Positions 1,781-64,000 of a stretch of DNA of 64,000 nt are shown in pieces. Made by a program: the position numbers and the translations under genes. The stretch is from a virus. The stretch spans positions 6,831 to 70,830 of IMG/VR virus record IMGVR_UViG_3300042402_004628; one strand, written 5' to 3'. Numbering within the stretch: position 1 is the first letter of the stretch; the number at the start of each line of letters is the position of its first letter. The notes beneath the pieces were generated by a model. That model was not told where the DNA came from. It saw only the letters and a program-made list of their open reading frames with translations, and searched no databases.

Positions 1781-3166
1781 ATGAGCAAATACACCGAGGA
1801 ACAACTTAAATTTATTAACTATAACGGGAACGATTCTGTTATATTGTCCGCAACCGCTGGTTCAGGTAAAACACACTCAACTGTTGGTAGGTTGAATAAA
1901 ATGATTGAAGATGGAGTCGATCCCAGTCGAATTATCTTCTTTAGTTTCACGAACGATGCTGTTAATGAGCTAAGATCGAGGATAAAACATGACGTTAAAA
2001 TAACCACAATTCATAGCTTCACAAGCTCAATTTTGGGTAAAATGGGGCTTTTTAAGCCAATTGTGACCTTTTATGAGTTTACTAACTGGTATAAGGACAA
2101 ATACAAACCACACCCAAAGGATCCGATGAAAATTAAAATGGATTACGCCAGAAATGTAGATAGATTCTACGAAGAGGGTGCTCAGATATCCGCTGGGTTT
2201 TCAGCTTATAAATTGCAAAATGCGGATAACATCAAAGTCATGAAACCTAGTTTTTATGATGAATATTCGGCTTTCATTAAAGAAACTAAGAGTCGAGATT
2301 TTTCTGATATGTTAATTGATACCGAGAAGTATTCAAGAAATGCTAAATATAAAGGATATTTTGAGAATTTGTATGATTATATTTTCGTTGACGAATACCA
2401 AGACACGTCAACACTTCAAATGAAGATACTATTGGCGATTAAAGCCAAGCAATATCATTTGATTGGTGATAAGAACCAATCAATATATGGGTTTTCTGGT
2501 GCGAATTGTGAAGAAATTGAGAATTTATTAATGAAAAACTCAACAGTAACTCAAATGACACTAACCAAGAATTTCAGGTCAACAAAAAAAATAGTTGAAA
2601 ACTCAAATCGATATAGTAGTCTAGTAGCGGTTCCACATCACGAAGAAGATGGCTACATACATGATAATCTAATCAACGATGTTATGATGTATAACATGAT
2701 GAATGACGGCAAACCTTTAACGGTATTGGCTAGAACAAACAATGTGATAAAAGAAATTGAAAAAGAATGCCTTAAGAAAAAAATTAAAATGCGTTATTTT
2801 AATTTTATATCACCTCAAGACATTGAAAAGATTAATGAGGGTAAAGTTAACCCATCATTAAAGAAAAAAATTGATTCGGTTTCGCCTTACTACGGAAACA
2901 CCTTTAATTTGATTAATTTTATTAAGGAAAATCAAGAATCAGATGTTTTTGTAACTAGTATTCACAAAAGTAAAGGTCGTGAATTCCCAAGATGTATTAT
3001 CATCAATTCAATCGACCCTGATATGTTGGCTGAAACGGACTATGATTTCGAAGAATATAGTTTTTTAACAAATAGTGGTGAGATTAATCAGGAAGCTAAA
3101 AATGTCCACTATGTGGCTGTTACCAGACCAAAAGAAGAATTATACTTCCTAGTGTACGAAAATTAA
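1781..3166 (+). CDS. UvrD/Rep/PcrA-family SF1 DNA helicase
   Basis: Walker A 'SATAGSGKTHS', motif II 'VDEYQDTS', C-terminal 'TSIHKSKGREFP' and 'VHYVAVTRPKEEL' typical of UvrD-like helicases; hairpin terminator follows. Confidence 0.8.
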   Translation: MSKYTEEQLKFINYNGNDSVILSATAGSGKTHSTVGRLNKMIEDGVDPSRIIFFSFTNDAVNELRSRIKHDVKITTIHSFTSSILGKMGLFKPIVTFYEFTNWYKDKYKPHPKDPMKIKMDYARNVDRFYEEGAQISAGFSAYKLQNADNIKVMKPSFYDEYSAFIKETKSRDFSDMLIDTEKYSRNAKYKGYFENLYDYIFVDEYQDTSTLQMKILLAIKAKQYHLIGDKNQSIYGFSGANCEEIENLLMKNSTVTQMTLTKNFRSTKKIVENSNRYSSLVAVPHHEEDGYIHDNLINDVMMYNMMNDGKPLTVLARTNNVIKEIEKECLKKKIKMRYFNFISPQDIEKINEGKVNPSLKKKIDSVSPYYGNTFNLINFIKENQESDVFVTSIHKSKGREFPRCIIINSIDPDMLAETDYDFEEYSFLTNSGEINQEAKNVHYVAVTRPKEELYFLVYEN

Positions 3167-3349: not shown

Positions 3350-4525
3350 TTAAATGTAATTAATAATCTTTTTAAATCTATTAATCGCCTCGTTAAGTTT
3401 CTCATCTTCTTCGTAAACTTTACCTTCAGCACCAGCTCTCATTTTCATAAAAGAACCCTCTTCTTTAACTTCTTCCTGACCACCCTCTTCCATTGGCTTA
3501 TCTTCACCTTCAGCAAAAGTACCGTCTTCTCTTACAGCGCCCGATTCAATATCATCCATACTTGGTACAGCGTATTTGTTAGTCTCTTGTTCTTCGTAAT
3601 CTTTTATCATAGCTTCAATCTCATCAACACCATCTTGAGCGTTTTTGGTGAAACCTGTTAGTCTGCTATAAGCATTACTCAACCACTGTTTAACTTTTCC
3701 GAACATTTCTTCAACACCCTCAAAAACTTTCGAACCATCAATCTTTAATTGGCCTTTAACCTTTGAGGCTACTTTAGAGTTTTCTAAAATTTGTTCAAGA
3801 ACTTTTCTAGTGTTCTCGTTAACTTTTGTTAACGCAGTCTCAAACGCATCTTTATATGATGTTGTTAATTTTTCAGATTCCTGGATTATTTCAACCAACA
3901 TCTCATCTATTGAAATTTTTAGTTTTTCGGCACCTTGGGTCTGACCTTTAAATGCATCCATAACCTCTGGAACCAAAGCGCTTTTTTGTGTTTCCAAATC
4001 AGCTATTGATTCTTTATAAGTTTTTAACGCCTCATCTAATTGAGTTTGAATTGTTTTTAATTCAGCTATTTTTTGGTTAATTGTATTTTCCATATTTTCA
4101 TTTATATTTTTTTTATCGTCATTGGTTTTAACACCAATCTTGGTGGTTTTACCCCAAACTGATGTTCTTATTTTACCCTGTTTGTTTTTTAATGTCACCT
4201 CAACTTTTCCACTCGGCGTTTTAGCCCCACTTGAAACTGAAACTATTTCTTCACCACTGGTAATTATATCACCCTTTTTTAAGTATTGGGCTTCTTTTCG
4301 ATCAACACCTTCCTGTAAACTTTTTTCATCTTTATCAATACCCATGGCAACTCTAAAATCATTATAATCGTAAGCCAAGTCGGTTGCATATCTGTAAACG
4401 GCTATATCAATTTTACCGTCTGGGTATTTACCCCAGCAATACACCCATTTCTCACCACCCATTTCAAATGGCGTTTCATCTCTGTATGGTTTGTAATATT
4501 CAACAACATCCATAGTACTTCTCAT
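3350..4525 (-). CDS. coiled-coil protein (possible scaffold or structural role)
   Basis: 391 aa; long heptad-like K/E-rich central region; no enzymatic motif. Confidence 0.5.
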   Translation of the reverse strand: MRSTMDVVEYYKPYRDETPFEMGGEKWVYCWGKYPDGKIDIAVYRYATDLAYDYNDFRVAMGIDKDEKSLQEGVDRKEAQYLKKGDIITSGEEIVSVSSGAKTPSGKVEVTLKNKQGKIRTSVWGKTTKIGVKTNDDKKNINENMENTINQKIAELKTIQTQLDEALKTYKESIADLETQKSALVPEVMDAFKGQTQGAEKLKISIDEMLVEIIQESEKLTTSYKDAFETALTKVNENTRKVLEQILENSKVASKVKGQLKIDGSKVFEGVEEMFGKVKQWLSNAYSRLTGFTKNAQDGVDEIEAMIKDYEEQETNKYAVPSMDDIESGAVREDGTFAEGEDKPMEEGGQEEVKEEGSFMKMRAGAEGKVYEEDEKLNEAINRFKKIINYI

Positions 4526-5978: not shown

Positions 5979-7073
5979 TTAAGACCATTTGTTTAACATT
6001 TGGTAATTGTGAACTTCGTTCCATTTATTTGCGTCATAATTACCCCCTTTCCAATATTGGAATGAACCTATTCTTATATCACCCCCAGCTGTTAAGCCCA
6101 ATCTGAAAATATTATCAAATATCAGTTCAGTTGTTCCAACTTGTTGTACATAATTTTCATTACTATCATCAGCAATAAATAGTTGACCAGCATCGTTTCT
6201 ACCAAAAATAAGGGTTATCCAAGTATTAACTTGTGCACTCATTGATACGGTATCAGCACCCATAGTAAATTGGTATACGTTTGTAGCAATATCATATCTA
6301 AGTCTCGTAATCCCCCCATCAGCATAAATTATTGCTGGTGAATTACTGGCCTGCGGTGTGAATCTGAGCCTCAACGCAAACATAAAAGACTCACCAGATG
6401 AAGTATTAAGGGGTGCTATATATGAAGCCGCATTGGATGAATCTAAATCTATGTATAAATTTGCCGCATTAAATCTTCTATTATAAGTTGAATTATCGCC
6501 CGCGGTTTGTATTGATGTGGAGATATTTCCAGCGACATTTTTTGTAAACCATCTTTCTATTACACCATCAGTTGCTTGAACCAAATCGTAACATTTTGTT
6601 AAATTAGTCTCAAGAATGTCGCAATTAAGATTACCGAAATCAATATTTAACATTAAATTAGGGGTGTCAGCGTATTTGTATTTTGATAAATCAGCCAAAA
6701 AATGATTTAAATTTTCATTTTCAATAACGTATCTTTTGGCAACATCCACGTCACTATAATACGTGCCATCAATTTTTATTGAATGCAAACTATTAATTAT
6801 GTGTACAATTTCCGCATTGGTTTTACCAGTGACGTGATATGTTGGAATCGTGGGCTCACCGCCAACACCTTCTACATTTCCTCTTGATACGATATAATAT
6901 TTTTCGCCACCAAAATTACCCGCAGGATAACCTGGTCTCCAAGTAAGACCCGTTGAATTTCCGTCTTGAAAATTAAACCCTTCATTAATGTGGCCATAGC
7001 AATATTTACCAATTCTATGATATTGATCAATCGTTGGTGCGGTACCGTATTGTATAGTTACTGGAACTGACAT
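5979..7073 (-). CDS. hypothetical protein (possible virion or fibre protein)
   Basis: 364 aa, G/N/T/S-rich beta-type composition; divergent from the 7137 gene. Confidence 0.45.
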   Translation of the reverse strand: MSVPVTIQYGTAPTIDQYHRIGKYCYGHINEGFNFQDGNSTGLTWRPGYPAGNFGGEKYYIVSRGNVEGVGGEPTIPTYHVTGKTNAEIVHIINSLHSIKIDGTYYSDVDVAKRYVIENENLNHFLADLSKYKYADTPNLMLNIDFGNLNCDILETNLTKCYDLVQATDGVIERWFTKNVAGNISTSIQTAGDNSTYNRRFNAANLYIDLDSSNAASYIAPLNTSSGESFMFALRLRFTPQASNSPAIIYADGGITRLRYDIATNVYQFTMGADTVSMSAQVNTWITLIFGRNDAGQLFIADDSNENYVQQVGTTELIFDNIFRLGLTAGGDIRIGSFQYWKGGNYDANKWNEVHNYQMLNKWS

Positions 7074-7136
7074 AATTTAATATTTTACAATAAATAGTAT
7101 TAAAGTTTAAAATAACTCGAGATATTTATATTATAT

Positions 7137-7850
7137 ATGAATTTAAACGAGCAGATATTAAGAATGAAAACCATGATCGGTTTATCCGAGGTTACCATTC
7201 CACAATCAATTAAAAAATCGGTTGGTGATGTTTTGTTTGGTTCAAATCCAATAATTGCAAAAATTCAAAACAAACCAATTGAAAAGAATACCCCATACGA
7301 GGATAACCTGGTTGACAAAATAAAGGATTGGACATTTCAATCAACAGAAAAATCCGAGATGGGCGTTGTATCAACAATATCCGATTTAATTAAACTAAAA
7401 AAATATTTTCCAGAGGTTCTCAACCCACCGTATGGTGAAAAAGTTTACAGAGGAACATCGGTTAAATTACCAGAGCTATCCAAATTCATAAAAGAAAACC
7501 CAGAACATGATGTTTTGGATAACGGTGCGGTTAAATTTAAAACACCCTACCAGTATACCCCAAAAAGAGAAGTTAGTAGTTGGAGTGCATCCTTGTTCTA
7601 CGCATCATCATTTCAGGGCAAATCATTCGAGAGTGCTGTGAATGTCCCAGTTATTTTTGAAACAACTGTCGATGACACATTCATTATGAATCCAAAAGTT
7701 ATGAACATCATATTTAAATCAACGGGCGGTGTTCACCAGGATTTTATAAGGGACGAGGACGAGATTATGAAGTACAACCCGAGTGGTACTTACCATCTAA
7801 TTTTGTCAGAAGACGAATACGAAATATTCGCACCAAATGCCGAGGTCTAA
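7137..7850 (+). CDS. hypothetical protein; member of the shared N-terminal leader family
   Basis: N-terminus 'MNLNEQILRMKTMIGLSE' matches leaders of the 9075-9692, 10065-11639 and 12454-13137 genes. Confidence 0.6.
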   Translation: MNLNEQILRMKTMIGLSEVTIPQSIKKSVGDVLFGSNPIIAKIQNKPIEKNTPYEDNLVDKIKDWTFQSTEKSEMGVVSTISDLIKLKKYFPEVLNPPYGEKVYRGTSVKLPELSKFIKENPEHDVLDNGAVKFKTPYQYTPKREVSSWSASLFYASSFQGKSFESAVNVPVIFETTVDDTFIMNPKVMNIIFKSTGGVHQDFIRDEDEIMKYNPSGTYHLILSEDEYEIFAPNAEV

Positions 7851-7937
7851 AACCGCCGAAGGCGGTTGCGAAAAAATTTTTCTTTTAAATGAATTTTTCT
7901 TATTTTTGTGATATATATGTAAAATAATCAGAATATA

Positions 7938-8120
7938 ATGTCGATGACCAACGAAGAAATAGCAGAAGAAATCTACCACCAAGCGTTTGATCTCGGATTT
8001 ATCGATTTACTTCGTGAAAAGGTTGGTTATATTTACAAAACAACGCATGTGAAAGATCACAGTGATGTTGTGCAAAAAGCATATAATTTATTGGTTACAG
8101 AAGGTTTGATACAACTATGA
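7938..8120 (+). CDS. small hypothetical protein
   Basis: 60 aa ORF followed by hairpin+T-run at 8167-8197. Confidence 0.45.
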   Translation: MSMTNEEIAEEIYHQAFDLGFIDLLREKVGYIYKTTHVKDHSDVVQKAYNLLVTEGLIQL

Positions 8121-8166
8121 GATTCAGAAGAAAATACAATAACAATAATAATAAAATAGTAATTGG

Positions 8167-8197
8167 AAATCCTGTCATTTGACAGGATTTTTTTTTG
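8167..8197 (+). terminator. intrinsic terminator
   Basis: AATCCTGTCATTTGACAGGATT + T9. Confidence 0.65.
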
Positions 8198-9040
8198 CGC
8201 CAAAAATTAAACAAAAAAAAACAAATGAAAAACACAGAAACTTACAATGAACTCGTGCAGAAGATGCGCAAATTCTTTCTTGAAAGAGGATTCAAGGAAG
8301 TGCCAACACAATCAAGATTATCAATTCTCGCGGCTTGTGAGAACCCACACTCGGTTAAAACGTTCGAGTATGGTGGTTTGATCTGGCCGTTGCCACAGAC
8401 TGGACAGATGTGGCTTGAGTATGAGTTGTTAAAGAATCCAGAATGGAATGGCGTATTTTGCGTATCAACATCGTACAGAGAAGAAAAGAACCCAATCCCA
8501 GGAAGGCATGAGCTTATCTTCCCAATGTTTGAGTTTGAGTCAAAGGGAACCATGGAGGATTTAATCAAAATGGAAGGCGACCTTTTGGCTTATCTTGGAT
8601 TTGGTGATGAGATGGTTCAAGTTAAATACGATGATGTGTGTGAGGAATACGGTGGGGTACCAATTCTTGAGGATGAGCATGAATCCAGAATGTGGAATGA
8701 AAAGGGTAATGTTGTTTCATTACAACACTTCCCAATCAGAACAAATCCATTCTGGAACATGAAACACAATAACGATGGGATTTTCAACAAGGTTGATGTG
8801 ATTCTTTACGGACAGGAAACAATTGGATCCGCCGAGAGAAGCTGCGATGTTGAGAAGATGAGAGAAATGTTTTATGCTATTGAGAACGGTGCGTATTGCG
8901 CCAAGTTGTTCGAGTTATTCGGAAAAGAAAGGGTTGAGGCTGAGCTTGAGGAATTCTTGAAGCACAATTTCTTCCCAAGATATGGTGGTGGAATCGGGAT
9001 GACCAGAATGGCCAGAGCGTATGAGTTATTAAAGAAATAA
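8195..9040 (+). CDS. class II aminoacyl-tRNA synthetase catalytic-core-like / asparagine synthetase A (AsnA)-like protein
   Basis: motif-2-like 'STSYREEKNPIPGRHELIFPMFEFES' and motif-3-like 'GGGIGMTRMARAYELL' (compare AsnA 'GGGIGQSRL'); 281 aa with no anticodon-binding domain. Confidence 0.55.
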   Translation: MRQKLNKKKQMKNTETYNELVQKMRKFFLERGFKEVPTQSRLSILAACENPHSVKTFEYGGLIWPLPQTGQMWLEYELLKNPEWNGVFCVSTSYREEKNPIPGRHELIFPMFEFESKGTMEDLIKMEGDLLAYLGFGDEMVQVKYDDVCEEYGGVPILEDEHESRMWNEKGNVVSLQHFPIRTNPFWNMKHNNDGIFNKVDVILYGQETIGSAERSCDVEKMREMFYAIENGAYCAKLFELFGKERVEAELEEFLKHNFFPRYGGGIGMTRMARAYELLKK

Positions 9041-9070
9041 AAAAAGGGGCGAAAGCCCCTTTTTCTTTTT
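9041..9070. terminator. bidirectional terminator between convergent genes
   Basis: A-run GGGGCGAAAGCCCC T-run. Confidence 0.65.
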
Positions 9071-9074
9071 ATCT

Positions 9075-9692
9075 TTAATCTTCTCCGCCCCAATCTTTAT
9101 AATCACCAAATCTTTCGTTGTCTTCATAACCAGCGTTGTACGCTTCGATTTCTTCTGGTGTTAAATCGGTGATTCTCTCACCTTTGTAAGTTCCTTCTGG
9201 ATACTTATGTGGGCTCTTGGGTCTTCTGTAATATGAATCGGCGTGACCGCGATCATATGGTGATCCGTGCGAATCATCGTATTTCTCACTTCTACCCTCC
9301 TGAAATATTTCAGTTCTTGGTTCATCGTAATGATCCAACTTACCTATTGGGTAACGTTCGCCCGTCTCAGCGTTGTATTTAATGATTATCTTACCATCAT
9401 CACTATCACCTATAAAATAATGTACATTATCATCAGCTAAACTATAATATAATGGTCTGTCATAATCATCAAACTCTCTTTGAACAACTTTTTCACCACT
9501 TGCGGATTCGATCGCGGCTTTTTCGAAATCGAAATCACTTTCCATTTCCTCGCCACCTCTTTCGGAATTATAGTTAAAAATATCATCGGTGTATGCATTT
9601 GGATTATCCACCTTTGATAGATCAATTTCTTCATTAAGACCCATTATTTTGCGGAGTCTCGCAATTTCTTCATTTAATGTATTCTTTTTCAT
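9075..9692 (-). CDS. acidic hypothetical protein; shared N-terminal leader family (start moved to second ATG)
   Basis: 'MKKNTLNEEIARLRKIMGLNEE' leader; D/E/Y-rich body; ORF track start 9749 is an upstream extension. Confidence 0.55.
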   Translation of the reverse strand: MKKNTLNEEIARLRKIMGLNEEIDLSKVDNPNAYTDDIFNYNSERGGEEMESDFDFEKAAIESASGEKVVQREFDDYDRPLYYSLADDNVHYFIGDSDDGKIIIKYNAETGERYPIGKLDHYDEPRTEIFQEGRSEKYDDSHGSPYDRGHADSYYRRPKSPHKYPEGTYKGERITDLTPEEIEAYNAGYEDNERFGDYKDWGGED

Positions 9693-9741
9693 AGAAAAAA
9701 ACAATTTATTGATAAATAGTTTGTCAAATCCAAAAATATTT

Positions 9742-10056
9742 ATGAACATGGTAAAACTTTTTGAGAGAATACATATCCCATTGTGGATCGCAAAGGATAT
9801 GTTCTGGATGTTGGGTCAGGGCGAACTCTCATTGGCTTTCGCGATACCAACCATAATATTATCAACAATACTCATAACAGTAAAACAGGGGTCGGAAAGG
9901 TGGCTCGAGATGATGATGGCCTTTTGGTTATCAGCCAATACCTTATGGATGTCCCACGAGCTTTTTCATACGGACACAAAAGAAATTGCATTAACCTGTT
10001 TTTTATTTGGCATTTTAACAATTCCAATCTATTTATTAAAGATAAAAGAAGAATAA
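9742..10056 (+). CDS. small multi-pass membrane protein
   Basis: In-frame ATG at 9742 inside track ORF 9589-10056; three hydrophobic segments. Confidence 0.45.
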   Translation: MNMVKLFERIHIPLWIAKDMFWMLGQGELSLAFAIPTIILSTILITVKQGSERWLEMMMAFWLSANTLWMSHELFHTDTKEIALTCFLFGILTIPIYLLKIKEE

Positions 10057-10064
10057 AACTAGTT

Positions 10065-11639
10065 ATGAAACTAACTGAGGAAATAAAGAAAATGCAATCC
10101 ATGATGGGCATTATGTCCGAGGATGTGAAAATATACGCAAACGGTGTTGGATCTGAGGTGTTTAATGATAACGAACATTACGGAAAGGTTGATGATATTA
10201 ATTTAAATGACACCATAGCAAATGAACCGTTTAAGGATATGGAATACATGGATAAAAGTTCCAATGTCGATGATATGGTTCAAGCCTTGAAATCTGGTGA
10301 AGAGCTGCCACCAATACTTGTTATTCAACACCCCTTCGACCAATCAAAATATTTGGTTGTCGATGGAAACCATAGAAGATACGCATATGACCGCGCAGGT
10401 GCTGATAAGATTCCAGCCGTTGTGATTAAACCAGAGGATGTTTTGTTAATGCAATCCGATTGGGGTGATCCAGAGGAAAAGGCGATCAGATTATCTGATG
10501 TTATATCCGATCCAGAGTTGTTTGCTCGAGAAAACACAAGAATGTTAATTGACAAGTATTTTGTTAAACCAGACGGATCACATGAGTTCGAATTGAATGA
10601 AAATTTATATGAGGAAAAGAAAAAAGCCGATCGTTGTTTAAGAATAGCGAGAAGAAAATACAGCAAACCATCAGCATATAGATCTGGTGCAATCGTTCAA
10701 TGCAGAAGAGGAAAGATATGGAGAGGTTTGAAGGAAGAGGAGATCCAAATGATTGACAACGCACCAGAGGAAATGCAAGGTTTGATCGCCAAGGCTCACG
10801 ATGCTTTGACGTGGAAGAGGGGTCGAAAAGAATATGCTCCAGATTTTAATGAACTTCAAACATGGGTGGATGCTTATTTGGAGACTGACGGTGGAATGCA
10901 TGAAGCGAAGAAAACCGATTTCTCAAAGGAGAAAAAGAGCGGACTTCACGGATGGTTTTCAAGAAGAGGTGGTGGCGGAAGCAAAGGATGGGTTGATTGC
11001 AACACATGCAGAAAAGTTGACGGAAAGAAAAAATGCAAGGCTTGTGGAAGACAAAAGGGTGAGGTGAGAGCCAAGTACCCATCATGCAGACCAACACCAG
11101 CATCATGCGGAACACCAGGAAAGGGAAAATCTTGGGGCAAGACAAAGGAAGAGGGTTACAGCTTGAATGAAGCCAAGGAGATGAAGAGAGTTGCTTTGCT
11201 TTTCATTGTGATTGACAACGAAGCGTTGTTGTTCAAGAGAAGCGAAGACGAAACAACAAATCCAGGAAAATACGGAATGCTTGGTGGTGGAATTGAAAAG
11301 AATGAAACGCCAGAGGAAGCAATCGTGAGAGAGATCAGAGAAGAAGCTGGTGTTGAGTTGAAATCATTCAAACCACTGAAGAAATATATTTACAACAACG
11401 AGTGTGAATTAAACGTATTCTACACAAACGAATTTCCAATTGATGATGTTGTGCTTGACAAGAACGAACACACATCGTACAAATATTTCACGATGGAACA
11501 ATTGATAGATATGGATCCAAAGGATATGATTGGTTCCAACAAAGAAATCGCGAAGGATTACAACGAGATCGCAAACAAGAAAAAGAAATTGGAAGAAGAG
11601 ATAGAGAGAATAAAAGCTACGATGAAGATTCTTATTTAA
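10065..11639 (+). CDS. ParB/Srx-like nuclease domain + Cys-rich linker + Nudix hydrolase fusion; shared N-terminal leader family
   Basis: 'LVVDGNHRRYA' ParB-type motif; Nudix box 'GGGIEKNETPEEAIVREIREEAGV'; Cys cluster CNTC..CKAC..C..C; N-terminus 'MKLTEEIKKMQSMMGIMSE'; the track ORF start 9783 overlaps the membrane gene. Confidence 0.7.
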   Translation: MKLTEEIKKMQSMMGIMSEDVKIYANGVGSEVFNDNEHYGKVDDINLNDTIANEPFKDMEYMDKSSNVDDMVQALKSGEELPPILVIQHPFDQSKYLVVDGNHRRYAYDRAGADKIPAVVIKPEDVLLMQSDWGDPEEKAIRLSDVISDPELFARENTRMLIDKYFVKPDGSHEFELNENLYEEKKKADRCLRIARRKYSKPSAYRSGAIVQCRRGKIWRGLKEEEIQMIDNAPEEMQGLIAKAHDALTWKRGRKEYAPDFNELQTWVDAYLETDGGMHEAKKTDFSKEKKSGLHGWFSRRGGGGSKGWVDCNTCRKVDGKKKCKACGRQKGEVRAKYPSCRPTPASCGTPGKGKSWGKTKEEGYSLNEAKEMKRVALLFIVIDNEALLFKRSEDETTNPGKYGMLGGGIEKNETPEEAIVREIREEAGVELKSFKPLKKYIYNNECELNVFYTNEFPIDDVVLDKNEHTSYKYFTMEQLIDMDPKDMIGSNKEIAKDYNEIANKKKKLEEEIERIKATMKILI

Positions 11640-11734
11640 CCTTCGCAAAGACAAACGCTACCTTCACATTCTGGGCAGCAAGTTCCTGGTTCAACCACGG
11701 GTAAAAACATTAAAGACAATTTTTATTATAGAAA

Positions 11735-11765
11735 AAAAAGGATCGATTAGTTCGATCCATTTTCA
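11735..11765. terminator. bidirectional terminator
   Basis: A8-GGATCGATTAGTTCGATCC-T4. Confidence 0.55.
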
Positions 11766-12298
11766 TTTATATTCTTTTCAACATTCTGTTTCATCCCGCG
11801 AACCATTTTAAGAAGACTGGAGTTATCGGTCTTAACGATGGTTGTCACCTGTGGTTCAGGTTCACGTGGCATTATCATGGCTGATACCTCACCGTCCCCA
11901 GAACCAGAACCGCCAGTTTCCATGCGAAGAGTTCTTTCGAAACGAACTGGTGAGCTGGTTGAGGTTGAAACAACTTTATTATGTGTCTTTTGAGCTTCAC
12001 TCTCCATATTGGTCAACATCTCAAGAATTTCCTTCTCACGAGATATGAATCTGTCCGTGCAAACGGTTTGATTGCTGATAACAATATCATTAAGTTCATT
12101 CACCCTGTCACTAAGGCTCTTTATCATAACCTTTTGGTTTTCCACCTTGTGTAATAATTCCTCATTATCTTGGGTAAGACCTTCGATAAGCTTAGGGCCA
12201 ATTGAGATAATCACAATGGACAAAAGAACAATCCCAAGAGCAGCAAGACGCTGTTTCATGGAGATCTTTGAGATGATTTCTGAAATATATTTAAACAT
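11747..12298 (-). CDS. membrane-anchored coiled-coil protein
   Basis: N-terminal TM 'LAALGIVLLSIVIISIG' then coiled coil; palindrome 32-56 nt upstream. Confidence 0.5.
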   Translation of the reverse strand: MFKYISEIISKISMKQRLAALGIVLLSIVIISIGPKLIEGLTQDNEELLHKVENQKVMIKSLSDRVNELNDIVISNQTVCTDRFISREKEILEMLTNMESEAQKTHNKVVSTSTSSPVRFERTLRMETGGSGSGDGEVSAMIMPREPEPQVTTIVKTDNSSLLKMVRGMKQNVEKNINENGSN

Positions 12299-12329
12299 GT
12301 CTCTATTTGTTTAAATATAAATATTCGTG

Positions 12330-12354
12330 TTTACAGTAAATTGTTTACTGTAAA
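12330..12354. promoter_or_regulatory. perfect 11-bp inverted repeat with a 3-bp spacer (operator-like palindrome)
   Basis: TTTACAGTAAA-TTG-TTTACTGTAAA, 32-56 nt upstream of the 12298 start codon. Confidence 0.45.
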
Positions 12355-12453
12355 CTAAATTAAAAGCAACGGGGGTAAAAATTACCATAATGTGTCACCA
12401 TCCCCAGGAGGGTGTTCGGAATAAAGGGTTTGTAAAAATTGTGGGGTTATGAA

Positions 12454-13137
12454 TTATATTCCAACGGTTGGTGAGTCCATGTTCTCACTTAAACCATAAT
12501 GTTTCTCAACCAAAGTTTCAAAGTAATTTAAAAGTCCTTCTTTACCAATACCACTTTCTTTGGCTTTCGCAATGAAGTCATCAGCACTAGCACCAATTCC
12601 ACCTTGAATCCAGTCCACATCAGCAGCTGTGATTATTTTTTCATTGATTGGTTCCTCACTCATTCTATTTAAAAAACTATTTAATTTTCCATTACTATAA
12701 GTTAAACCAAGTTCTTTGGTTAACTTTTCAAGTACTCTAACCACTTGAGTTTTATATGGGTCTGAATAAGCTCTAACAAAAGATCCAGAGCCACGATTAA
12801 ACATGAAACCGTATATTCTTTGATCTATTTGACTAATCACATATTTTTTCTTCTCTTCTGGTTCTGTTGGTATTGACCCAGTATATTTTTGGTCTGACTC
12901 AACAAAATCGGTTACCAGTTTATTAAAAGCTTCCACAAATTCTTTTGCTTTTGTTGGATTTTCTTGCCAAGAATCATTACGAGCACTATTATTAATTGAT
13001 AAACCTTTAATTATTGGTTCCATACGTCCAAAGCCATCATCAATTATTTTAACGGAATCAACGAACTCGTTTAGATTCTCATTAAGGCCCATCATCTGGC
13101 GTATTCTTAAAACTTCTTCATTTAAGGTATTATTCAT
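12454..13137 (-). CDS. hypothetical protein; shared N-terminal leader family
   Basis: 'MNNTLNEEVLRIRQMMGLNE' leader. Confidence 0.6.
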   Translation of the reverse strand: MNNTLNEEVLRIRQMMGLNENLNEFVDSVKIIDDGFGRMEPIIKGLSINNSARNDSWQENPTKAKEFVEAFNKLVTDFVESDQKYTGSIPTEPEEKKKYVISQIDQRIYGFMFNRGSGSFVRAYSDPYKTQVVRVLEKLTKELGLTYSNGKLNSFLNRMSEEPINEKIITAADVDWIQGGIGASADDFIAKAKESGIGKEGLLNYFETLVEKHYGLSENMDSPTVGI

Positions 13138-13190
13138 GGTAAAATCAATTAATTTACTATAAATATCTGAAAAATGGATAAAAAAAACAC

Positions 13191-55091: not shown

Positions 55092-56543
55092 TTAAATTTT
55101 AATCTTTATGTTTTCGATAATTAAATCACCAGTGTGAATACCGTTATGTTTATAAATTTCAACATGGTATCTGTTAGATGAGTTGACCTCAAATTCAAAT
55201 TGCATTGTTGGTCTACCGTCAGCGTTGAGTGTTCTACAACAACCCTTTTCACAAGACTCACCAGGCATTTTATGATCGGCTCCGAAGAAAGACATATAAC
55301 CCGCGAAGCTCTCAACCATATTCGGGTGTGCTGTTGTTAATTTATTTCGATTAACGTAAACCTCATAGACACCTTTAGGTATCTTCGTGAATGAAACGGT
55401 TAATACTAATTTAACTCTATTTGGCGCACCTAGCTGGCCACTTGTTGGCGTAACCTGTGTGACAGCATCTGTGATTTGACCATTAATTGGTATGCTGAAA
55501 TTATTGCTATGTAAAACATTGTTGTATGCTCTAGCCATCATCGGTTGATCAGCTTTTTCATATACCTCAACATCATCATAATCATAATCAAGTTTGTATA
55601 TTATCTTTATCACATCTTCCATTGTATAGGTAACTTTCTTACCATTCTCATCGAAGAAAACATAAGACCAGTCAGCTGATTTTAACATCTCCAATGTAAC
55701 TTTCTCCCCATTCGGAGAATTAGTCCATTGCTGCCATAGTCTATCAATGTTTGAGTGATGTGTCCAGAAAACTGGATCAAACCCAGCTGTCGGAACCCAA
55801 CCCATCAACCCTGTCTCACTAATTTTACCAGTGATTGGGTTGTTGAACAACTTACCAGTTTGTACATTACCAGCGCCGATGTAATCGTGCATCGCACCAT
55901 GTGGGGCATTGTTAATCTGCGAGTTAAACATTTCGTATGAGGTGTAACTCATTAATTTATCTGTCTCCAAAGCTCTTTGGATTTCACCTGCAATAGGATA
56001 ACCATAGTTCAAGCTATCAAATCTACAACGTTCATATAGGGATGATTTCGGATCTCTGAATTTTTCTTGTAAAAATTTGTCGTAGTCAAAATTATTTGTG
56101 TAGCCCCAATAAGGTAATGCGAAATCTTTATATCCAGACAATTTTCTAACTATCTTTTCTAAATGGTGAATGTATAATCTATGCCAAACCAAGAAATGAA
56201 TTTTTTCTTTACCACTTGGTGTATGTGTACAATTATCCCAAGCTTCTTTTAAATCGGCTGGGGTCTTATAGCTTGGGCACAGTGGGTTATATAAGATTGT
56301 GTCGGGAACCCAATGAATTGCACCTTGATAATACCAACTCAATGGGTTATCACAAGGCATATTACGCATAATTTTAAAGGCTTTGTCCATGGCTTCAACG
56401 TCCATTTGTGCCTCTGGTGTGTGAATTTCTTTTCGGAGATATCGTTTTCCAACAACATCTCCAACGCTTTCGGTTCTGTCTTTACATGATATTAGCCATA
56501 ATAGGCCAAACATCAAAATGAATAGTATTAATATTTTTTTCAT
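55092..56543 (-). CDS. tyrosinase / polyphenol oxidase (type-3 copper), predicted lipoprotein
   Basis: CuA 'HFLVWHRLYIHHLE', CuB 'HGAMHDYIG...DPVFWTHHSNIDRLWQQW'; N-terminal MKKILILFILMFGLLWLISC lipobox. Confidence 0.8.
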   Translation of the reverse strand: MKKILILFILMFGLLWLISCKDRTESVGDVVGKRYLRKEIHTPEAQMDVEAMDKAFKIMRNMPCDNPLSWYYQGAIHWVPDTILYNPLCPSYKTPADLKEAWDNCTHTPSGKEKIHFLVWHRLYIHHLEKIVRKLSGYKDFALPYWGYTNNFDYDKFLQEKFRDPKSSLYERCRFDSLNYGYPIAGEIQRALETDKLMSYTSYEMFNSQINNAPHGAMHDYIGAGNVQTGKLFNNPITGKISETGLMGWVPTAGFDPVFWTHHSNIDRLWQQWTNSPNGEKVTLEMLKSADWSYVFFDENGKKVTYTMEDVIKIIYKLDYDYDDVEVYEKADQPMMARAYNNVLHSNNFSIPINGQITDAVTQVTPTSGQLGAPNRVKLVLTVSFTKIPKGVYEVYVNRNKLTTAHPNMVESFAGYMSFFGADHKMPGESCEKGCCRTLNADGRPTMQFEFEVNSSNRYHVEIYKHNGIHTGDLIIENIKIKI

Positions 56544-58704: not shown

Positions 58705-58921
58705 CTTCTTTTTTAATATCCTCTCGAGTTAATTCTTTTTCAGCTTGGTGCATGAAGATAATCTCTTTTGTTTGTTCATCAACTGTGCAAGCGGCAATTG
58801 GTTTATCAACTCGGTAATGATATTCTTCTCCTAGCATACCAACTTCTCCGTTGACAACTTCAAAGGCATCAAACTCCTCTGGTAGGGTGTTGAGCCACGT
58901 TTTTAATTCTCCTAAATTCAT
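58691..58921 (-). CDS. hypothetical protein
   Basis: ORF track. Confidence 0.4.
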   Translation of the reverse strand: MNLGELKTWLNTLPEEFDAFEVVNGEVGMLGEEYHYRVDKPIAACTVDEQTKEIIFMHQAEKELTREDIKKEDGKD

Positions 58922-59943
58922 ATATCGTAAGGTGTTGTACTGAATGTTATCTTCTCGATACTCAAACAGTTTGTGTTTATTATTTTTTCGATAAACATAA
59001 TAAAATCAGAAACAATATCAAATGATTTTATTTGTTTGTTCAGGTATAGGTTGTAAACCCCAATTTCTTGAAGAACATCTGATTTATTGATTATTAAATC
59101 AGTCACACCGTTGATGTTAATTGCTTTGATCATATCGTCCAAGTCCAACCAATCAACTTGCCTCGGTCTACCAGTTGTTGCACCAAACTCATTACCAACT
59201 TCTCTTATCTTCACAAACAATGGGTCTGCACCTTCAAAGTTTTTGGCACCAACATATGTGCGATAAGCTTTTGCAACGCCGTACACTCTGTCAATTTTTT
59301 GTGCTGGTATTCCATTAAGGATGGCCCCACCAATTGTGCAATGTGATGATGTAACATATGGGTAATCACCCCAATCAATATCCAACTCAAAACCCTGAGC
59401 CCCTTCGCAAAGTATACTACAACCGTCTTGCCCATTAAATAATCCGTATGTATCAACAACCATGTCGGCTAACATAGGAACATCAACAGCTCTAAGACCT
59501 TTTCGATAATACTTATCTCGGTAAGCTGGGCCATTCCCAGTTTTAGTCGTACCGATTTTACTATCCAAACTATCTTCGTGTAGATGTTGCTCGGTGATGA
59601 TGTGAACACGTTTATCAATCAATAAGTTCTCACGAACTTTAAATCCAGCTAATTCGAGTTCATCAATTTCTTGAATAAGTTTGTCTGGGTTGACCACACA
59701 ACCAAGTCCAATAATTGATTTGATTCCATACAATACACCAACTGGTATGAAATGTGTTACATATTTTTCACCATTGTGATATATCGTGTGACCAGCATTA
59801 CCACCACCATTGTAGCGCATAACATAATCATACTCATCTGGCTTCTTAGCCAGAGCGTGGGCAACCTTGCCCTTTCCAGTGTCACCCGCTTGCAGGTCAA
59901 CAATTACATCAGCTTTGCGTATCATAGTGCGTGGTTTTCCCAA
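58918..59943 (-). CDS. purA: adenylosuccinate synthetase (short form)
   Basis: 'GDTGKGK', 'RYNGGGNAGHT', 'GTTKTGNGPAYRDK', 'EGAQGFELDIDWGDYPYVTSS', 'GNEFGATTGRPRQVDWLD' align to PurA motifs; the real start may be the internal MIRKADV. Confidence 0.85.
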   Translation of the reverse strand: MGKPRTMIRKADVIVDLQAGDTGKGKVAHALAKKPDEYDYVMRYNGGGNAGHTIYHNGEKYVTHFIPVGVLYGIKSIIGLGCVVNPDKLIQEIDELELAGFKVRENLLIDKRVHIITEQHLHEDSLDSKIGTTKTGNGPAYRDKYYRKGLRAVDVPMLADMVVDTYGLFNGQDGCSILCEGAQGFELDIDWGDYPYVTSSHCTIGGAILNGIPAQKIDRVYGVAKAYRTYVGAKNFEGADPLFVKIREVGNEFGATTGRPRQVDWLDLDDMIKAININGVTDLIINKSDVLQEIGVYNLYLNKQIKSFDIVSDFIMFIEKIINTNCLSIEKITFSTTPYDI

Positions 59944-60432: not shown

Positions 60433-62295
60433 TTATTTTACCTCGGTTACAGTACCCTGTTCAGATTCTTTTTTCTCTTGGATTTGCTTTAACAATTCCA
60501 TTCCAAGTAAGCCATTGATTGGGCTACTATCACCACTACCTGTGATAAGAATCTCAGGGATGATTTTGATACCATTTGTACCAATCATTTCGGTAACTTT
60601 AAGTTTACCAAAGTTTTCAACACCCATAGCTTTAACTTGCTTTTCGTAAGCCTCAGCAGTTGATTTACCAATCGCGGAAATCTTAGATGCTTCAGCATCA
60701 CCAGTCAATTTAATCTGCGTAGCATCAGCTTCAGCGTTCAATTTCTTAGCTTCAGCTTGAGCGGCAGCTTTTAATTTCAAGGCTTGTGCTTCACCCTCAG
60801 ATTTCTTAACAGCGGCCTCAGCTTCACGTTGAGAAATCTCAACCGATTGTTGTGCTGACACCATTTGTCCTTGCATATCGGCAAGTGCTTTAGCCGATTC
60901 AAGCGTCTTACGTTTATCTTGAGCTTTGCGTTGAGTGTCAAATGTTACCTCTTCTTCTTGTGCAATCTTACGGTCAGTAAGAGTTTTCATCAGAGAGTCT
61001 GGTGGTGTGATGTCACCAATAAGCGTATCAACCGCATGCACGTTGTATTCTTCAAGAACCGTGCTGATCTTATCTTTAGCAGCATTCTGTCTTTGTTGAC
61101 GAGTTGATAAGAACGCAATCACATCAGAATCTTGTGCCGAGTTACGGAAATAGTTACCGATGGTTGGTTCAAGAACTTGTGACACAAGGTTCTGCATTGA
61201 GCCGAAACGAGCAATTACTTTAGGCGCTTCGGTTGATGGGATGTGGATAATCTGTGAAACATCCAAATTGAATGGGAAACCGTCTTGTGAACGTACTGTG
61301 ATGGTACTCAAGTTCTTATCAAGATTGTGTGATTCATTACGAGCATTTGCCCAGTTAAGAACCAAGTTTGTTGTTGGTACTATCTCAATCTTCTGTGTAT
61401 AAGGATTGATTGCGTATTTACCTGGATCCAATGGGGTTGCCCACACACCTTTCTGACCTTTTTTAACGATGTTACCGTGTTTAAAATCACTTCCAGTGGT
61501 GTCTTCACCATCTTCACCAACATAAGAGATAACAACACCAACATGACCGATAGGAATGGATGTCATTTCTTTCTTCTCAACTTCGATTGCCCATGGGTTC
61601 AATGAATAAGAACCAGCTTGAATAACTTGGATTTGTAAACCCCTTTGTCCACCATTAGCCAAAAACTTATCAAAGTCTTGGAAATTATTGTGACCGCTAA
61701 CCACAGAACCAGCGATTGAACCAATCTCAAGTGGTGTACCATCAAGTGCTGTAACAACGCCAACCATACCATCTTCAATGTATGTGATGTCAGCGAGGAA
61801 TATCTCGAATAAATGGGTATTAACACGATACACACCGTTGTTTAAATAACCAACTTGTTTACCACGTTGTCCACCTGTTGATAAAAACGCTCTAGCATCT
61901 TGGTAATCATCACAATCAACGTGTCGAGCCAAGATAGCACCCTTTGGTAACTGTGCGCCATCTTTAGCTGATAACAAGCCGATCTTACCTTTAGGTATTG
62001 TTGTTAAAGGGGCTTGTTCGATTTCGAATTGCCATATCCAGTAAGCCCAATATAAACCTGGGGCTAATGTGTCGGCCTGAAAGCCTGGTTCATTGTTTAA
62101 GGCGATAATCTTACCATCGGGTAATTGTTTATTGGGGCCAAAAAGTACAAATTTTTTGGTCACCAAACCAATTTTGTCTTCAGGTATGATAACCATACCA
62201 AAGAACACTCGTAGTACGAACTTGTAGAATACTACCATGAGGATCGGGATTAAAACCCATGCGTAACCCAATACGCTAGTTAATTGTTCTGTCAT
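60433..62295 (-). CDS. flotillin-like SPFH/band-7 protein (YqiK-type) with EA-rich C-terminal coiled coil
   Basis: N-terminal TM, SPFH-like core, 'AEAAVKKSEGEAQALKLKAAAQAEAKKLNAEADA' flotillin-type repeats. Confidence 0.7.
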   Translation of the reverse strand: MTEQLTSVLGYAWVLIPILMVVFYKFVLRVFFGMVIIPEDKIGLVTKKFVLFGPNKQLPDGKIIALNNEPGFQADTLAPGLYWAYWIWQFEIEQAPLTTIPKGKIGLLSAKDGAQLPKGAILARHVDCDDYQDARAFLSTGGQRGKQVGYLNNGVYRVNTHLFEIFLADITYIEDGMVGVVTALDGTPLEIGSIAGSVVSGHNNFQDFDKFLANGGQRGLQIQVIQAGSYSLNPWAIEVEKKEMTSIPIGHVGVVISYVGEDGEDTTGSDFKHGNIVKKGQKGVWATPLDPGKYAINPYTQKIEIVPTTNLVLNWANARNESHNLDKNLSTITVRSQDGFPFNLDVSQIIHIPSTEAPKVIARFGSMQNLVSQVLEPTIGNYFRNSAQDSDVIAFLSTRQQRQNAAKDKISTVLEEYNVHAVDTLIGDITPPDSLMKTLTDRKIAQEEEVTFDTQRKAQDKRKTLESAKALADMQGQMVSAQQSVEISQREAEAAVKKSEGEAQALKLKAAAQAEAKKLNAEADATQIKLTGDAEASKISAIGKSTAEAYEKQVKAMGVENFGKLKVTEMIGTNGIKIIPEILITGSGDSSPINGLLGMELLKQIQEKKESEQGTVTEVK

Positions 62296-62620: not shown

Positions 62621-64000
62621 TTATAATTTATTTAAACGTTCACGAATTTCAGTTAATGTTGTTTGGTTGTGGAACTTACCATCTTCATAAATGGTTTGTA
62701 AGATTCCAGTTCCCTCTTGCTCCCAAGTACATTGAGTTAATACCTCATGGTCTTCAGTTACACAGATCAAACCTTTCAAAGATTTCTTGGTACCATCATC
62801 AGTTACTGGATCTTTGTAGATGTTGTAACCAACCTTTCCTTTTGGAATTAAAGCACTTCCCAAAAGTCCATCGGCTGAAGGTATAGTATCAAACTCCTCA
62901 ACTTCAAACCAAGCACCTTTGGCTGCGAAACCTAAAGTGTCACGGGTATTCATTTGGTAAGTAAATGAACCAACACCCAATACAATGTTTGTTGCCGCAA
63001 ATCCTTTTGCTTCCAATCTCTTGTAGATTTCAATTTGACGGTCTAATGTGATTGAATCTCCGTAGATTGCTCCGATGTGTGGGTCAAGAACCTTGTAACC
63101 TTGTTCATTGATTGTTCCACCAAAGATGTCCCAAAGTAATTCTATTACCCCGACTTCAGCAGGTGTTTTATACTCACCAGGCGCATCGGATAATTGTTCT
63201 TCTCTACCACAAATAATATCAACTGGATCACCAGAGTCAGGACGAATTACTAACTTACCGTCACGAGCCATGATAGCTTCTTTGTTTGCTGGTAAGTATT
63301 CAGTAATCAACTTCCACAAATCAAATGTGTCAGATACAATTGATAGGATTCCATTCGGAAAATCTACCAACCAATCGGCAATCATTTGTTGTTCACCAAC
63401 AGTAAAGATTTTTGTTGTTGATACAGAGTGTTCAGATGCGTTAACCGAGTTAATGCACACTTCGTCTTTTGGTTCATTATAGAAATAACGAGCCCCTGGA
63501 ATACAGATGATTGTATCTGAACCACGGAACGATGTTGCATGTCCCATTCCACTAGTCAACATATCCCATGGTGATAAACCACGTGCTGAAAAGTCATGAC
63601 ACATAAAAGGAATTAACCAAGCTGTTGATGGGTCGGTTTTCATAACCCACTCAACAACATTACGTTTGTATTGCAATGCTATTGTTGCTGATGTGGATGG
63701 TTTCCAAGCCAACGAACTGATAATTGTTTCCAAATACAATGTCAACCACGCAAACCCATCGACAGTATTGATGAAAGTCATGTGTGGAACATTTGGGTTT
63801 GTTTCAATACCTTCAGGTAGTGCTTTAACACGAATAGGTAAGTAACCTAATCTGTGTAGTGCAACGAAGTGTGATGCATCGTAATCCATTCCAAGATACA
63901 ATGACATATCTTTTCCAAAGTTAACCGCAACTTCCTCGGGTAAACTGAAAAAGTTCTCTTGAAATTCATCATGTAACCATTTAACAACCAATTGTTGTCC
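62621..64000 (-). CDS. nadV: nicotinamide phosphoribosyltransferase (NAMPT/NadV), 5' end beyond the window
   Basis: 'IRPDSGDPVD', 'GSDTI', C-terminal 'IYKDPVTDDGTKKSLKGLICV' match NAMPT; the frame stays open to position 64000 (the track start 63991 is a TTG artefact). Confidence 0.8.
   Translation of the reverse strand, partial: GQQLVVKWLHDEFQENFFSLPEEVAVNFGKDMSLYLGMDYDASHFVALHRLGYLPIRVKALPEGIETNPNVPHMTFINTVDGFAWLTLYLETIISSLAWKPSTSATIALQYKRNVVEWVMKTDPSTAWLIPFMCHDFSARGLSPWDMLTSGMGHATSFRGSDTIICIPGARYFYNEPKDEVCINSVNASEHSVSTTKIFTVGEQQMIADWLVDFPNGILSIVSDTFDLWKLITEYLPANKEAIMARDGKLVIRPDSGDPVDIICGREEQLSDAPGEYKTPAEVGVIELLWDIFGGTINEQGYKVLDPHIGAIYGDSITLDRQIEIYKRLEAKGFAATNIVLGVGSFTYQMNTRDTLGFAAKGAWFEVEEFDTIPSADGLLGSALIPKGKVGYNIYKDPVTDDGTKKSLKGLICVTEDHEVLTQCTWEQEGTGILQTIYEDGKFHNQTTLTEIRERLNKL

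Follow-up and report, generated by a model that had tools for sequence, protein, structure and literature searches.

The capsid targeting sequence (CTS) that Mullaney and Black are said to have described in 1996 for the internal proteins of bacteriophage T4 reads MKTYQEFIAE, and the scaffold protein of the same phage, gp22, starts with MLKEQLIAE. T4 gp21 cuts after (L/I)-x-E. The 10-residue tag is borne by diverse internal defence proteins (PMC3012670, PMC9026906), its targeting residues (4 and 7) are separable from its processing residues (8 and 10) (PMC9026906), and its presence on the internal proteins IPI–III and in the propeptides of Alt, a protein that is processed at both termini, has been reviewed (PMC3012670, PMC9026906). 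Here we describe a comparable element, a leader of about 20 residues that opens four proteins encoded in a stretch of 64,000 nucleotides of viral DNA (positions 6,831 to 70,830 of the IMG/VR virus record IMGVR_UViG_3300042402_004628; ‘the window’ hereafter denotes this whole stretch), and suggest, with a probability of about 60%, that it is a T4-CTS-like propeptide that mimics the head scaffold and targets late-made effectors to the prohead for injection.

Like the T4 CTS, the leader is a short N-terminal peptide on unrelated proteins, ends in (L/I)-x-E, is found on cargo of apparent anti-defence or host-takeover type and would resemble a terminus of the phage’s scaffold (in T4, the N-terminus of gp22). 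Unlike the T4 CTS, it has no similarity to MKTYQEFIAE and is twice as long, so that we regard it as an analogue rather than a homologue; it would also be modelled on the C-terminal rather than the N-terminal peptide of the scaffold, is used between domains, has a larger repertoire (45 cargo families among 90 proteins) and belongs to phages that are uncultured, in part jumbo-sized (up to about 320 kb) and probably hosted by Bacteroidota. The concept of a CTS is established; what would be new is the sequence, the origin from a scaffold C-terminus, the use at both termini and at junctions, and the much larger cargo repertoire. A full-text literature search for the motif strings returned no paper, and in topical searches the only such tags described were those of T4, P1 and giant phages.

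In the list of open reading frames (ORFs) of the window, four proteins begin with a leader of identical type, M-x(1-4)-LNEEIxR(I/M)(K/R)x(I/M)MG(L/I)-x-E. Leader protein 1 (7137..7850, + strand, 237 amino acids) starts with MNLNEQILRMKTMIGLSE at 7137(+), and its leader spans residues 1–18 (nucleotides 7137–7190) and ends G-L-S-E; leader protein 2 (9075..9692, − strand, 205 amino acids) starts with MKKNTLNEEIARLRKIMGLNEE at 9692(−), with a leader of residues 1–22 (nucleotides 9692–9627) ending G-L-N-E; leader protein 3 (10065..11639, + strand, 524 amino acids) starts with MKLTEEIKKMQSMMGIMSE at 10065(+), with a leader of residues 1–19 (nucleotides 10065–10121) ending I-M-S-E; and leader protein 4 (12454..13137, − strand, 227 amino acids) starts with MNNTLNEEVLRIRQMMGLNE at 13137(−), with a leader of residues 1–20 (nucleotides 13137–13078) ending G-L-N-E. 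The original prediction had proposed a common N-terminal leader on these four proteins, and we find it on each of them at the same position and strand; it had also described the leaders as ending in L-x-E, which is correct for three and wrong for the ParB-like/Nudix protein (leader protein 3), in which the ending is M-S-E. Past residue 24 the bodies have no BLASTP similarity to one another (every pair E > 1), and the further claim that the proteins are otherwise unrelated therefore stands. Expressed as degenerate DNA, the motif L-(N/T)-E-(E/Q)-Φ-x-(K/R)-Φ-(K/R/Q)-x-(I/M)-(I/M)-G-Φ matches the 64-kb window four times, exactly at the four leader genes, whereas 100 dinucleotide-preserving shuffles of the window gave a mean of 0.00 and a maximum of 0 matches, on which basis chance was rejected.

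The helix encoded by the leader also occurs at C-termini, where the original prediction had no copies. A six-frame scan placed a second copy at the extreme C-terminus of leader protein 3 (LEEEIERIKATMKILI*, nucleotides 11589–11636), so that this protein, with a copy at both ends, is reminiscent of T4 Alt with its propeptides at both ends. A weak copy (independent E-value (iE) 0.15) forms the last 16 residues (nucleotides 3353–3400, KLNEAINRFKKIINYI*) of an acidic, coiled-coil-rich protein of 391 amino acids with a late-type promoter box (3350..4525, − strand).

The leader is a widespread, modular element that is restricted to viruses. In IMG/VR, a strict back-translated pattern was found at 19 loci, in all of which the motif lies 2–5 residues after the initial methionine, and a wider DNA pattern was found at 92 loci in viral contigs. 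The search of related phages with a leader hidden Markov model (HMM) that had been proposed along with the original prediction uncovered a family: run locally, the HMM recovered 103 unique instances, 97 of them N-terminal, 2 truncated at locus ends, 2 probably with non-ATG starts and 2 internal. Removal of the leader from 90 complete leader proteins left 45 unrelated clusters. In 596 gigabases of bacterial and archaeal genomes, just four sites matched this DNA pattern, and we find none of them convincing. Among GenBank phages, tblastn with the 23-residue leader consensus or with the 227-residue protein gave no match; a word-indexed protein search with the leader alignment, a method unsuited to a 20-residue motif, returned near-identical fragments only; and an exhaustive search of a representative library returned 36 significant matches, one of them a false positive (a surface protein of 2,279 amino acids), a count that is no measure of family size. 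Variants of the element were also seen, as at one locus (L014, 4137–11401) where several large proteins start with ...EEIERIKSLF(T/G)E(E/S)RLYG in place of ...IMGL-x-E.

Selection appears to act on the peptide, as the conserved residues show free synonymous variation: across the 83 unique leaders of the window class that we collected, one E is invariant and M-G is near-invariant, yet the conserved R is written with five codons and the conserved G with four, and in the DNA alignment of the four window leaders the differences likewise fall at synonymous positions. These synonymous differences led us to reject a DNA repeat or RNA element, and they bear in the same way on the broader idea that the conserved start is a nucleic-acid element (an mRNA site for translation initiation or repressor binding, or a boundary at which recombination shuffles cassettes). 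We consider this idea very improbable, given that the motif is also found at C-termini, inside proteins and in scaffold ends, even if it does often stand at gene starts, in cassettes that each have a promoter and a terminator, and even if variant contigs differ by genes inserted here. Hardly credible is a secretion or membrane signal (Sec, Tat, lipoprotein or type IX), for which one could cite a short N-terminal sequence common to unrelated proteins: the leader columns (L-N-E-E-I-x-R-I-K-x-M-M-G-L) are charged throughout (E, E, R, K), have no hydrophobic core, twin arginine or lipobox, recur at C-termini and internally, and are absent from cellular genomes. A Sec, Tat or lipoprotein signal peptide was specifically rejected, as no hydrophobic core of about 10–15 residues follows a basic N-region.

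Past the helix, the leaders carry a site of the type cut by prohead proteases. In the window class the first E after the G is at +3 in 49 and at +4 in 15 leaders (64 of 83), and (L/I)-x-E follows the helix in 64 of the 83 (77%). In 68 leaders the G is followed by an E at a distance of at most six residues, and in 64 of these an L or I stands two positions ahead of that E; that is, L/I shifts in register when E shifts by one, and (L/I)-x-E moves as a unit.

In relatives, fused modules keep a copy of the leader at every junction. One such protein (P0137) has a GNAT-like domain, the leader and a domain of the type found in leader protein 1; a second (P0149) has a Nudix domain, the leader, a further domain, the leader again and a third domain; and a third (P0163) has the leader, a domain, the leader and an ART-like domain. 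A 310-kb relative (L467) encodes leader-copy proteins of 629 and 568 amino acids, the latter an ART-PolyVal protein. The C-terminal and internal copies indicate that the element is a portable docking helix and not only an N-terminal propeptide. In this it resembles the cargo-loading peptides of encapsulins, short terminal peptides that direct enzymes into an HK97-fold shell: the leader, too, is a short terminal tag on diverse enzymes and would work at either terminus. Encapsulins differ in being cellular nanocompartments that hold no DNA and do not release cargo by proteolysis, and their peptides have no sequence relation to the leader.

A link to the head scaffold emerged from a sister class of leaders with the consensus MKKQILSEEFxRMQKLAGIITE. 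Among GenBank phages, only the T4-like Flavobacterium phages vB_FspM_immuto (hereafter immuto) have a domain in common with the window Nudix protein. Between their Peptidase_S77 protease gene (Pfam 8.9e-35) and their gp23-type capsid gene lies an acidic ORF of 413 amino acids, left unnamed by PHROGs and Pfam, which its position identifies as the predicted head scaffold. The C-terminus of this ORF reads ...SEQVSRWQKLAGIIK*, and gp083, the product of a neighbour of the Nudix-related gene, starts with MKKQILSEQFRRMQKLAGIITES. The two immuto leaders (gp083 and gp230), both N-terminal, read MKKQILSEQF(R/K)RMQ(K/F)LAGIITES, and the complete immuto genome (160,410 bp, 1,990 ORFs) has no copies of the motif other than the one at the scaffold end and those in these two leaders, three in all.

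The scaffold-end peptide is conserved in this lineage. Two rounds of sampling centred on the capsid gene gave about 160 loci, in which this peptide forms the C-terminus of the ORF that directly precedes the capsid gene (for example, ...VISEVSDAVRRMQKLAGIIK*, ...ILSEGNQLAARWKKLANLK* and ...VANRFKKLAGLL*), here defined as ...(I/L)xE-x6-R(M/W/F)(Q/K)KLA(G/N)(I/L)xx*. Among 113 unique scaffold ends the motif lies 1–5 residues before the stop, and (I/L/V/M)-x-E lies exactly 7 residues ahead of the helix R in 105 (93%). A conserved peptide at the extreme C-terminus of the scaffold, with a protease-type site just upstream, recalls the scaffolds of P22, phi29 and herpesviruses, which have C-terminal coat-binding tails and, in herpesviruses, a maturational M-site; the layout mirrors the herpesvirus logic, in which the scaffold is freed by cutting off its tail, with capsid binding here a prediction only. 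We know of no natural family of cargo enzymes that borrows the scaffold tail in P22, phi29 or herpesviruses.

A DNA scan for sister leaders (E-x-F-x-R-M-Q-K-L-A-G-Φ-x-x-E) found at least 120 loci. Among the matches listed, 94 of 106 unique instances were N-terminal, an HMM scan of the sister-class loci gave at least 135 N-terminal leader proteins, and of 116 sister leaders, 108 (93%) have (I/L/V)-x-E past the helix and 93 have it ahead of the helix as well. One sister-class protein (L406:1656–2312) carries two tandem leaders. The HMM of each class recovers leaders of the other, always N-terminal (85 and 88 matches with E < 1, among the matches listed), and intermediate leaders exist (for example, MNLLNEEITRIKSMMGIITES). 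Profile–profile comparison relates the window class to the sister class (probability 95.6%, P = 1.2e-8, 18 columns), the sister class to the scaffold ends (97.8%, P = 6.9e-13, 15 columns; iE 1.9e-6 by HMM) and, more weakly, the window class to the scaffold ends (63.9%, P = 6.6e-5, 13 columns). By these sequence comparisons, the window and sister classes are one homologous family.

The motif extends to other phages. A 267-kb relative in the sister lineage (L466) encodes Portal_T4, S77 and Gp23 proteins, and the scaffold-end motif is present in the 484-kb huge phage LR756508 (L468, 20085–21833, ending ...ILNEDVEMKSRMQKLADIS) and in Microcystis phage Mel-JY01 (L469, 23870–24970, ending ...ILNESNNVVERMKKLAGIVK). 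For a phage with a cyanobacterial host, Mel-JY01 is odd in its GC content of 34% and in its head module, which belongs to this type.

The timing of expression fits such a role. All four leader genes are preceded by a late-type box TATTTAT: at 7123..7129 (+), 14 nucleotides ahead of the start of leader protein 1; at 9712..9718 (−), 26 nucleotides ahead of leader protein 2; at 10030..10036 (+), 35 nucleotides ahead of leader protein 3; and at 13159..13165 (−), 28 nucleotides ahead of leader protein 4. We read this box as a late promoter because, in immuto and the 267-kb relative, TATTTAT precedes the terminase, portal, gp13, sheath, tube, hub and tape-measure genes. TATTTAT(A) stands at −15 to −30 upstream of 47% of leader genes versus 26% of other genes, and the host-type −7 box TAnnTTTG (Bacteroidota-type) is found at 2% of leader genes versus 15% of others. 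Within the window, the genes at 0.5–13.2 kb, the four leader genes included, have TATTTAT(A) and never the early TAnnTTTG box, and about 55 small genes from 13.2 to ~44 kb (13200–44500) each have TAnnTTTG at about −30. The TAnnTTTG genes thus appear to form an early block, which gives the window two putative promoter regimes, and these indicate that the host belongs to the Bacteroidota and that the late promoter is specific to the phage; by promoter inference only, the leader genes would be expressed at the time of head assembly. Convergent gene pairs are set apart by bidirectional terminators, with terminator-like hairpins at 9039..9066 (between the convergent gene for a protein resembling class II aminoacyl-tRNA synthetases (aaRS-like) and leader gene 2) and 11740..11758 (after leader gene 3). 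Two further genes have the late box and no leader, one at 5979–7073(−) for a 364-residue protein of no family and one at 11747–12298(−) for a 183-residue protein with an N-terminal membrane segment; their products may be structural or lysis-related.

As for what the leaders are attached to, leader protein 3 has ParB-like, DUF5872-like and NUDIX parts after its leader. The original prediction had called it a ParB-like/Nudix fusion: the NUDIX part is secure (61.8 bits against a Pfam cut-off of 21.1, residues 374–487), and ParB_N stays below the Pfam cut-off (23.7 bits, E = 5.2e-5, cut-off 26.3) while PHROGs, which match both parts, contain a ParB-like hit at 4.3e-7. Leader protein 2 has a body of a family with a GSPYDRG motif that recurs across many leader loci, and the body of leader protein 4 matches no known family (Pfam, PHROG, tblastn against GenBank phages). 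Leader protein 1 gave no match by Pfam, PHROG or PDB sequence search, and its predicted model is poor (predicted local distance difference test score (pLDDT) of 50); invariant Y104-R105-G106, S148-W149 and D206-E207-D208-E209 in 12 homologues (YRG.S / S-W / DEDE) suggest that its body is possibly an R-S-ExE ADP-ribosyltransferase, similar to Alt.

In the wider sample there are at least 220 tagged proteins in 117 clusters, among the matches listed, and just 10 Pfam families matched over the 117 representative cargo proteins. These include an Acb1 protein that counters the cyclic-oligonucleotide-based antiphage signalling system (CBASS) (33.4 bits, cut-off 27) and ART-PolyVal (39.1 bits, cut-off 31.2; two representatives), with further matches to NUDIX, L5 gp82, DUF3990 and ParB-like families; matches to P-loop kinase families stay under the Pfam cut-offs. 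On the basis of these domains, the cargo appears to consist of varied host-takeover and anti-defence enzymes, like known or predicted injected effectors. The domain types are those predicted to be packaged and injected in polyvalent proteins (Iyer et al. 2017, PMC5512222), and the likeness to polyvalent and MuF-anchored effectors (PMC5512222) comprises ART-PolyVal, ParB-like, NUDIX, 2H/Acb1 and GNAT-like domains as well as a predicted delivery with the DNA. Some relatives string several domains together as polyvalent proteins do (P0149, P0163 and the proteins of L467), and leader protein 3 itself has at least two conflict-related effector domains in one polypeptide, by which polyvalent proteins are defined; the other three window leader proteins are single-domain. 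Unlike polyvalent proteins, the cargo is mostly separate small effectors, each with its own tag, the tag recurs at junctions and there is no MuF or portal fusion.

The same targeting evidence would hold if the tagged proteins entered the prohead core and acted there only (for example, as core or assembly factors or DNA-condensing internal proteins), with no injection and perhaps no cutting of the tag. Small leader proteins inside the head modules of two relatives (L144 and L163), in a position that resembles that of T4 gp67/gp68, could be read in this way. However, we judge such a confinement to the core unlikely, because some of the cargo enzymes (Acb1, ART-PolyVal, Nudix and the P-loop kinase-like protein) have their substrates in the host cell, and because the cargo families show an extreme turnover, as one expects of arms-race effectors rather than assembly factors.

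Considering these observations, we propose that a single short helix (LNEEIxRIKxIMG) mimics the C-terminus of the head scaffold and docks the attached protein to the partner of the scaffold end in the assembling prohead; this partner would probably be the major capsid protein, on its inner face, or else the scaffold core. The tagged genes would be expressed late, with the head and tail genes. After assembly, the gp21-type (Peptidase_S77) prohead protease would cut at the (L/I)-x-E past the helix and remove the tag, and the freed enzyme would stay in the head and be injected along with the DNA. C-terminal and between-domain copies would act likewise, and at the junction copies, multi-domain proteins could in addition be cut apart once in the head. 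We infer the steps of docking, cleavage, packaging and injection from sequence patterns; directly supported are the motif, its modularity, its restriction to viruses, the selection at the peptide level, the homology to the sister class and the identity of the latter with the scaffold ends, the (L/I/V)-x-E and the late-type box.

Several observations weigh against this proposal. The scaffold link is drawn from the head modules of relatives and not from that of the window phage: genes for a capsid, portal or protease protein are absent from all 92 leader loci, the list of capsid-protein homologues holds close immuto relatives only, and we found no scaffold that ends in the window-type ...IMGL. 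The scaffold-end HMM has no direct match to window-type leaders, and we therefore consider the link between the two to be real but indirect. Mel-JY01 and LR756508 have the scaffold motif and no leaders in the parts read, which suggests that the motif has a role of its own to which leaders are an optional add-on. No E is found within six residues past the helix in 15 of the 83 window-class leaders, and leader protein 3 has M-S-E. AlphaFold predicted the leader helix at low confidence only, and amphipathicity by hydrophobic moment was not significant, so that we dropped the description of the helix as amphipathic. Finally, some genomes have six or more leader genes per 10–20 kb, which is much cargo for one head. 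As regards the search for a head module of the leader-bearing lineage, 79 loci around its T4-like sheath lacked genes for capsid, portal and protease proteins, annotating the surroundings of the sheath with PHROGs gave nothing informative, and sampling with a divergent capsid protein added scaffold ends of the sister type and none of the window type. A presumed terminase adjoining a leader gene (L041) was not confirmed.

The main rival is a docking helix for some other common partner (for example, a coiled-coil complex, or a chaperone, polymerase, membrane or replication-compartment hub), in which case the likeness to the scaffold would reflect a shared helix type. Such a general interaction module would fit a helix found at N-termini, at C-termini and between domains, with hydrophobic residues at i, i+4, i+7 and i+11 (that is, a heptad-like spacing), as well as the weak match of window-type leaders to scaffold ends and the distance of leader genes from head genes. 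We nevertheless hold it to be doubtful, since it leaves unexplained the in-register (L/I/V)-x-E past the helix, the restriction of the motif in immuto to the scaffold end and two leaders, the late promoters of structural type and the cargo of injected-effector type. The original prediction had drawn the analogy to a capsid-targeting propeptide from four proteins; it gains from the sister and scaffold homology, the (L/I)-x-E, the late box and the effector-like cargo, and is qualified by the weak direct similarity to the scaffold (P = 6.6e-5) and by the C-terminal and internal copies. We place the prohead-targeting propeptide at about 60% because packaging is predicted, the head genes are those of relatives only, a scaffold of the window flavour is missing and some phages have the scaffold motif without leaders.

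The phage itself has a genome of ~299 kb, which makes it a jumbo phage, and megablast against GenBank found no close relative. The window has no tRNA genes and encodes a UvrD-type helicase, the class II aaRS-like protein, a tyrosinase, an SPFH protein, NAMPT and an adenylosuccinate synthetase of short length, a gene set such as large phages with auxiliary metabolism commonly have. The aaRS-like protein (8195–9040(+), 281 amino acids) is encoded between leader genes, and among annotated proteins it is closest to the ‘tRNA ligase’ of Prochlorococcus phages P-SSM2, P-SSM5 and P-SSM7 and that of the huge phages LR756501 and LR756508. In a variant contig of the same phage (L258, 600–2000), Metallophos and glycosyltransferase 2 genes are inserted at window positions 9040–9075, between the aaRS-like gene and the 205-residue leader gene, which suggests that the leader region is a hotspot of gene gain and loss. 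The tyrosinase, a 620-residue SPFH/Band 7 protein and NAMPT, encoded at 55092–56543(−), 60433–62295(−) and 62621–63907(−), make up an unusual auxiliary set, and ferritin, SmpB, PfkB, MGS and HAD_SAK_2 genes lie just past the window (L175, 1–9700). The adenylosuccinate synthetase (58918–59943(−), 341 amino acids, Pfam 4e-82, phrog_1211) adjoins DHFR and DUF6717 genes and is PurZ-like, so that the phage might make 2-aminoadenine DNA. The UvrD-type helicase of the 310-kb relative (L467, 5352–7799), an ortholog of that at window positions 1781–3166, has 815 amino acids and a faint LAGLIDADG match, the corresponding part being probably an intein.

Proteins that are injected with phage DNA act before phage genes are expressed and are hence a first line against host defences, and, T4, P1 and some giant phages apart, the only way to find them is virion proteomics of cultured phages. 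If our proposal is correct, the leader would mark the injected proteome of uncultured phages from their sequences, metagenomes included, and the tagged proteins counted here, which are mostly without a known domain and include an Acb1-type anti-CBASS enzyme (L040:2750–3313) and polyvalent-type ADP-ribosyltransferases, would be its members. It would also show that a tag can originate by copying the scaffold’s own docking peptide, and would provide a second natural tag, unlike the T4 CTS in sequence, for loading foreign proteins into phage heads. More tentatively, and at somewhat less than even odds, we envision that an uncultured T4-like clade (probably of Bacteroidota phages, jumbo phages included) has made the end of its scaffold into a general address label by which dozens of separately evolving effectors per genome (Acb1, ADP-ribosyltransferases, Nudix and ParB-like enzymes among them), some as self-dismantling polyproteins, would be loaded, cut and injected.

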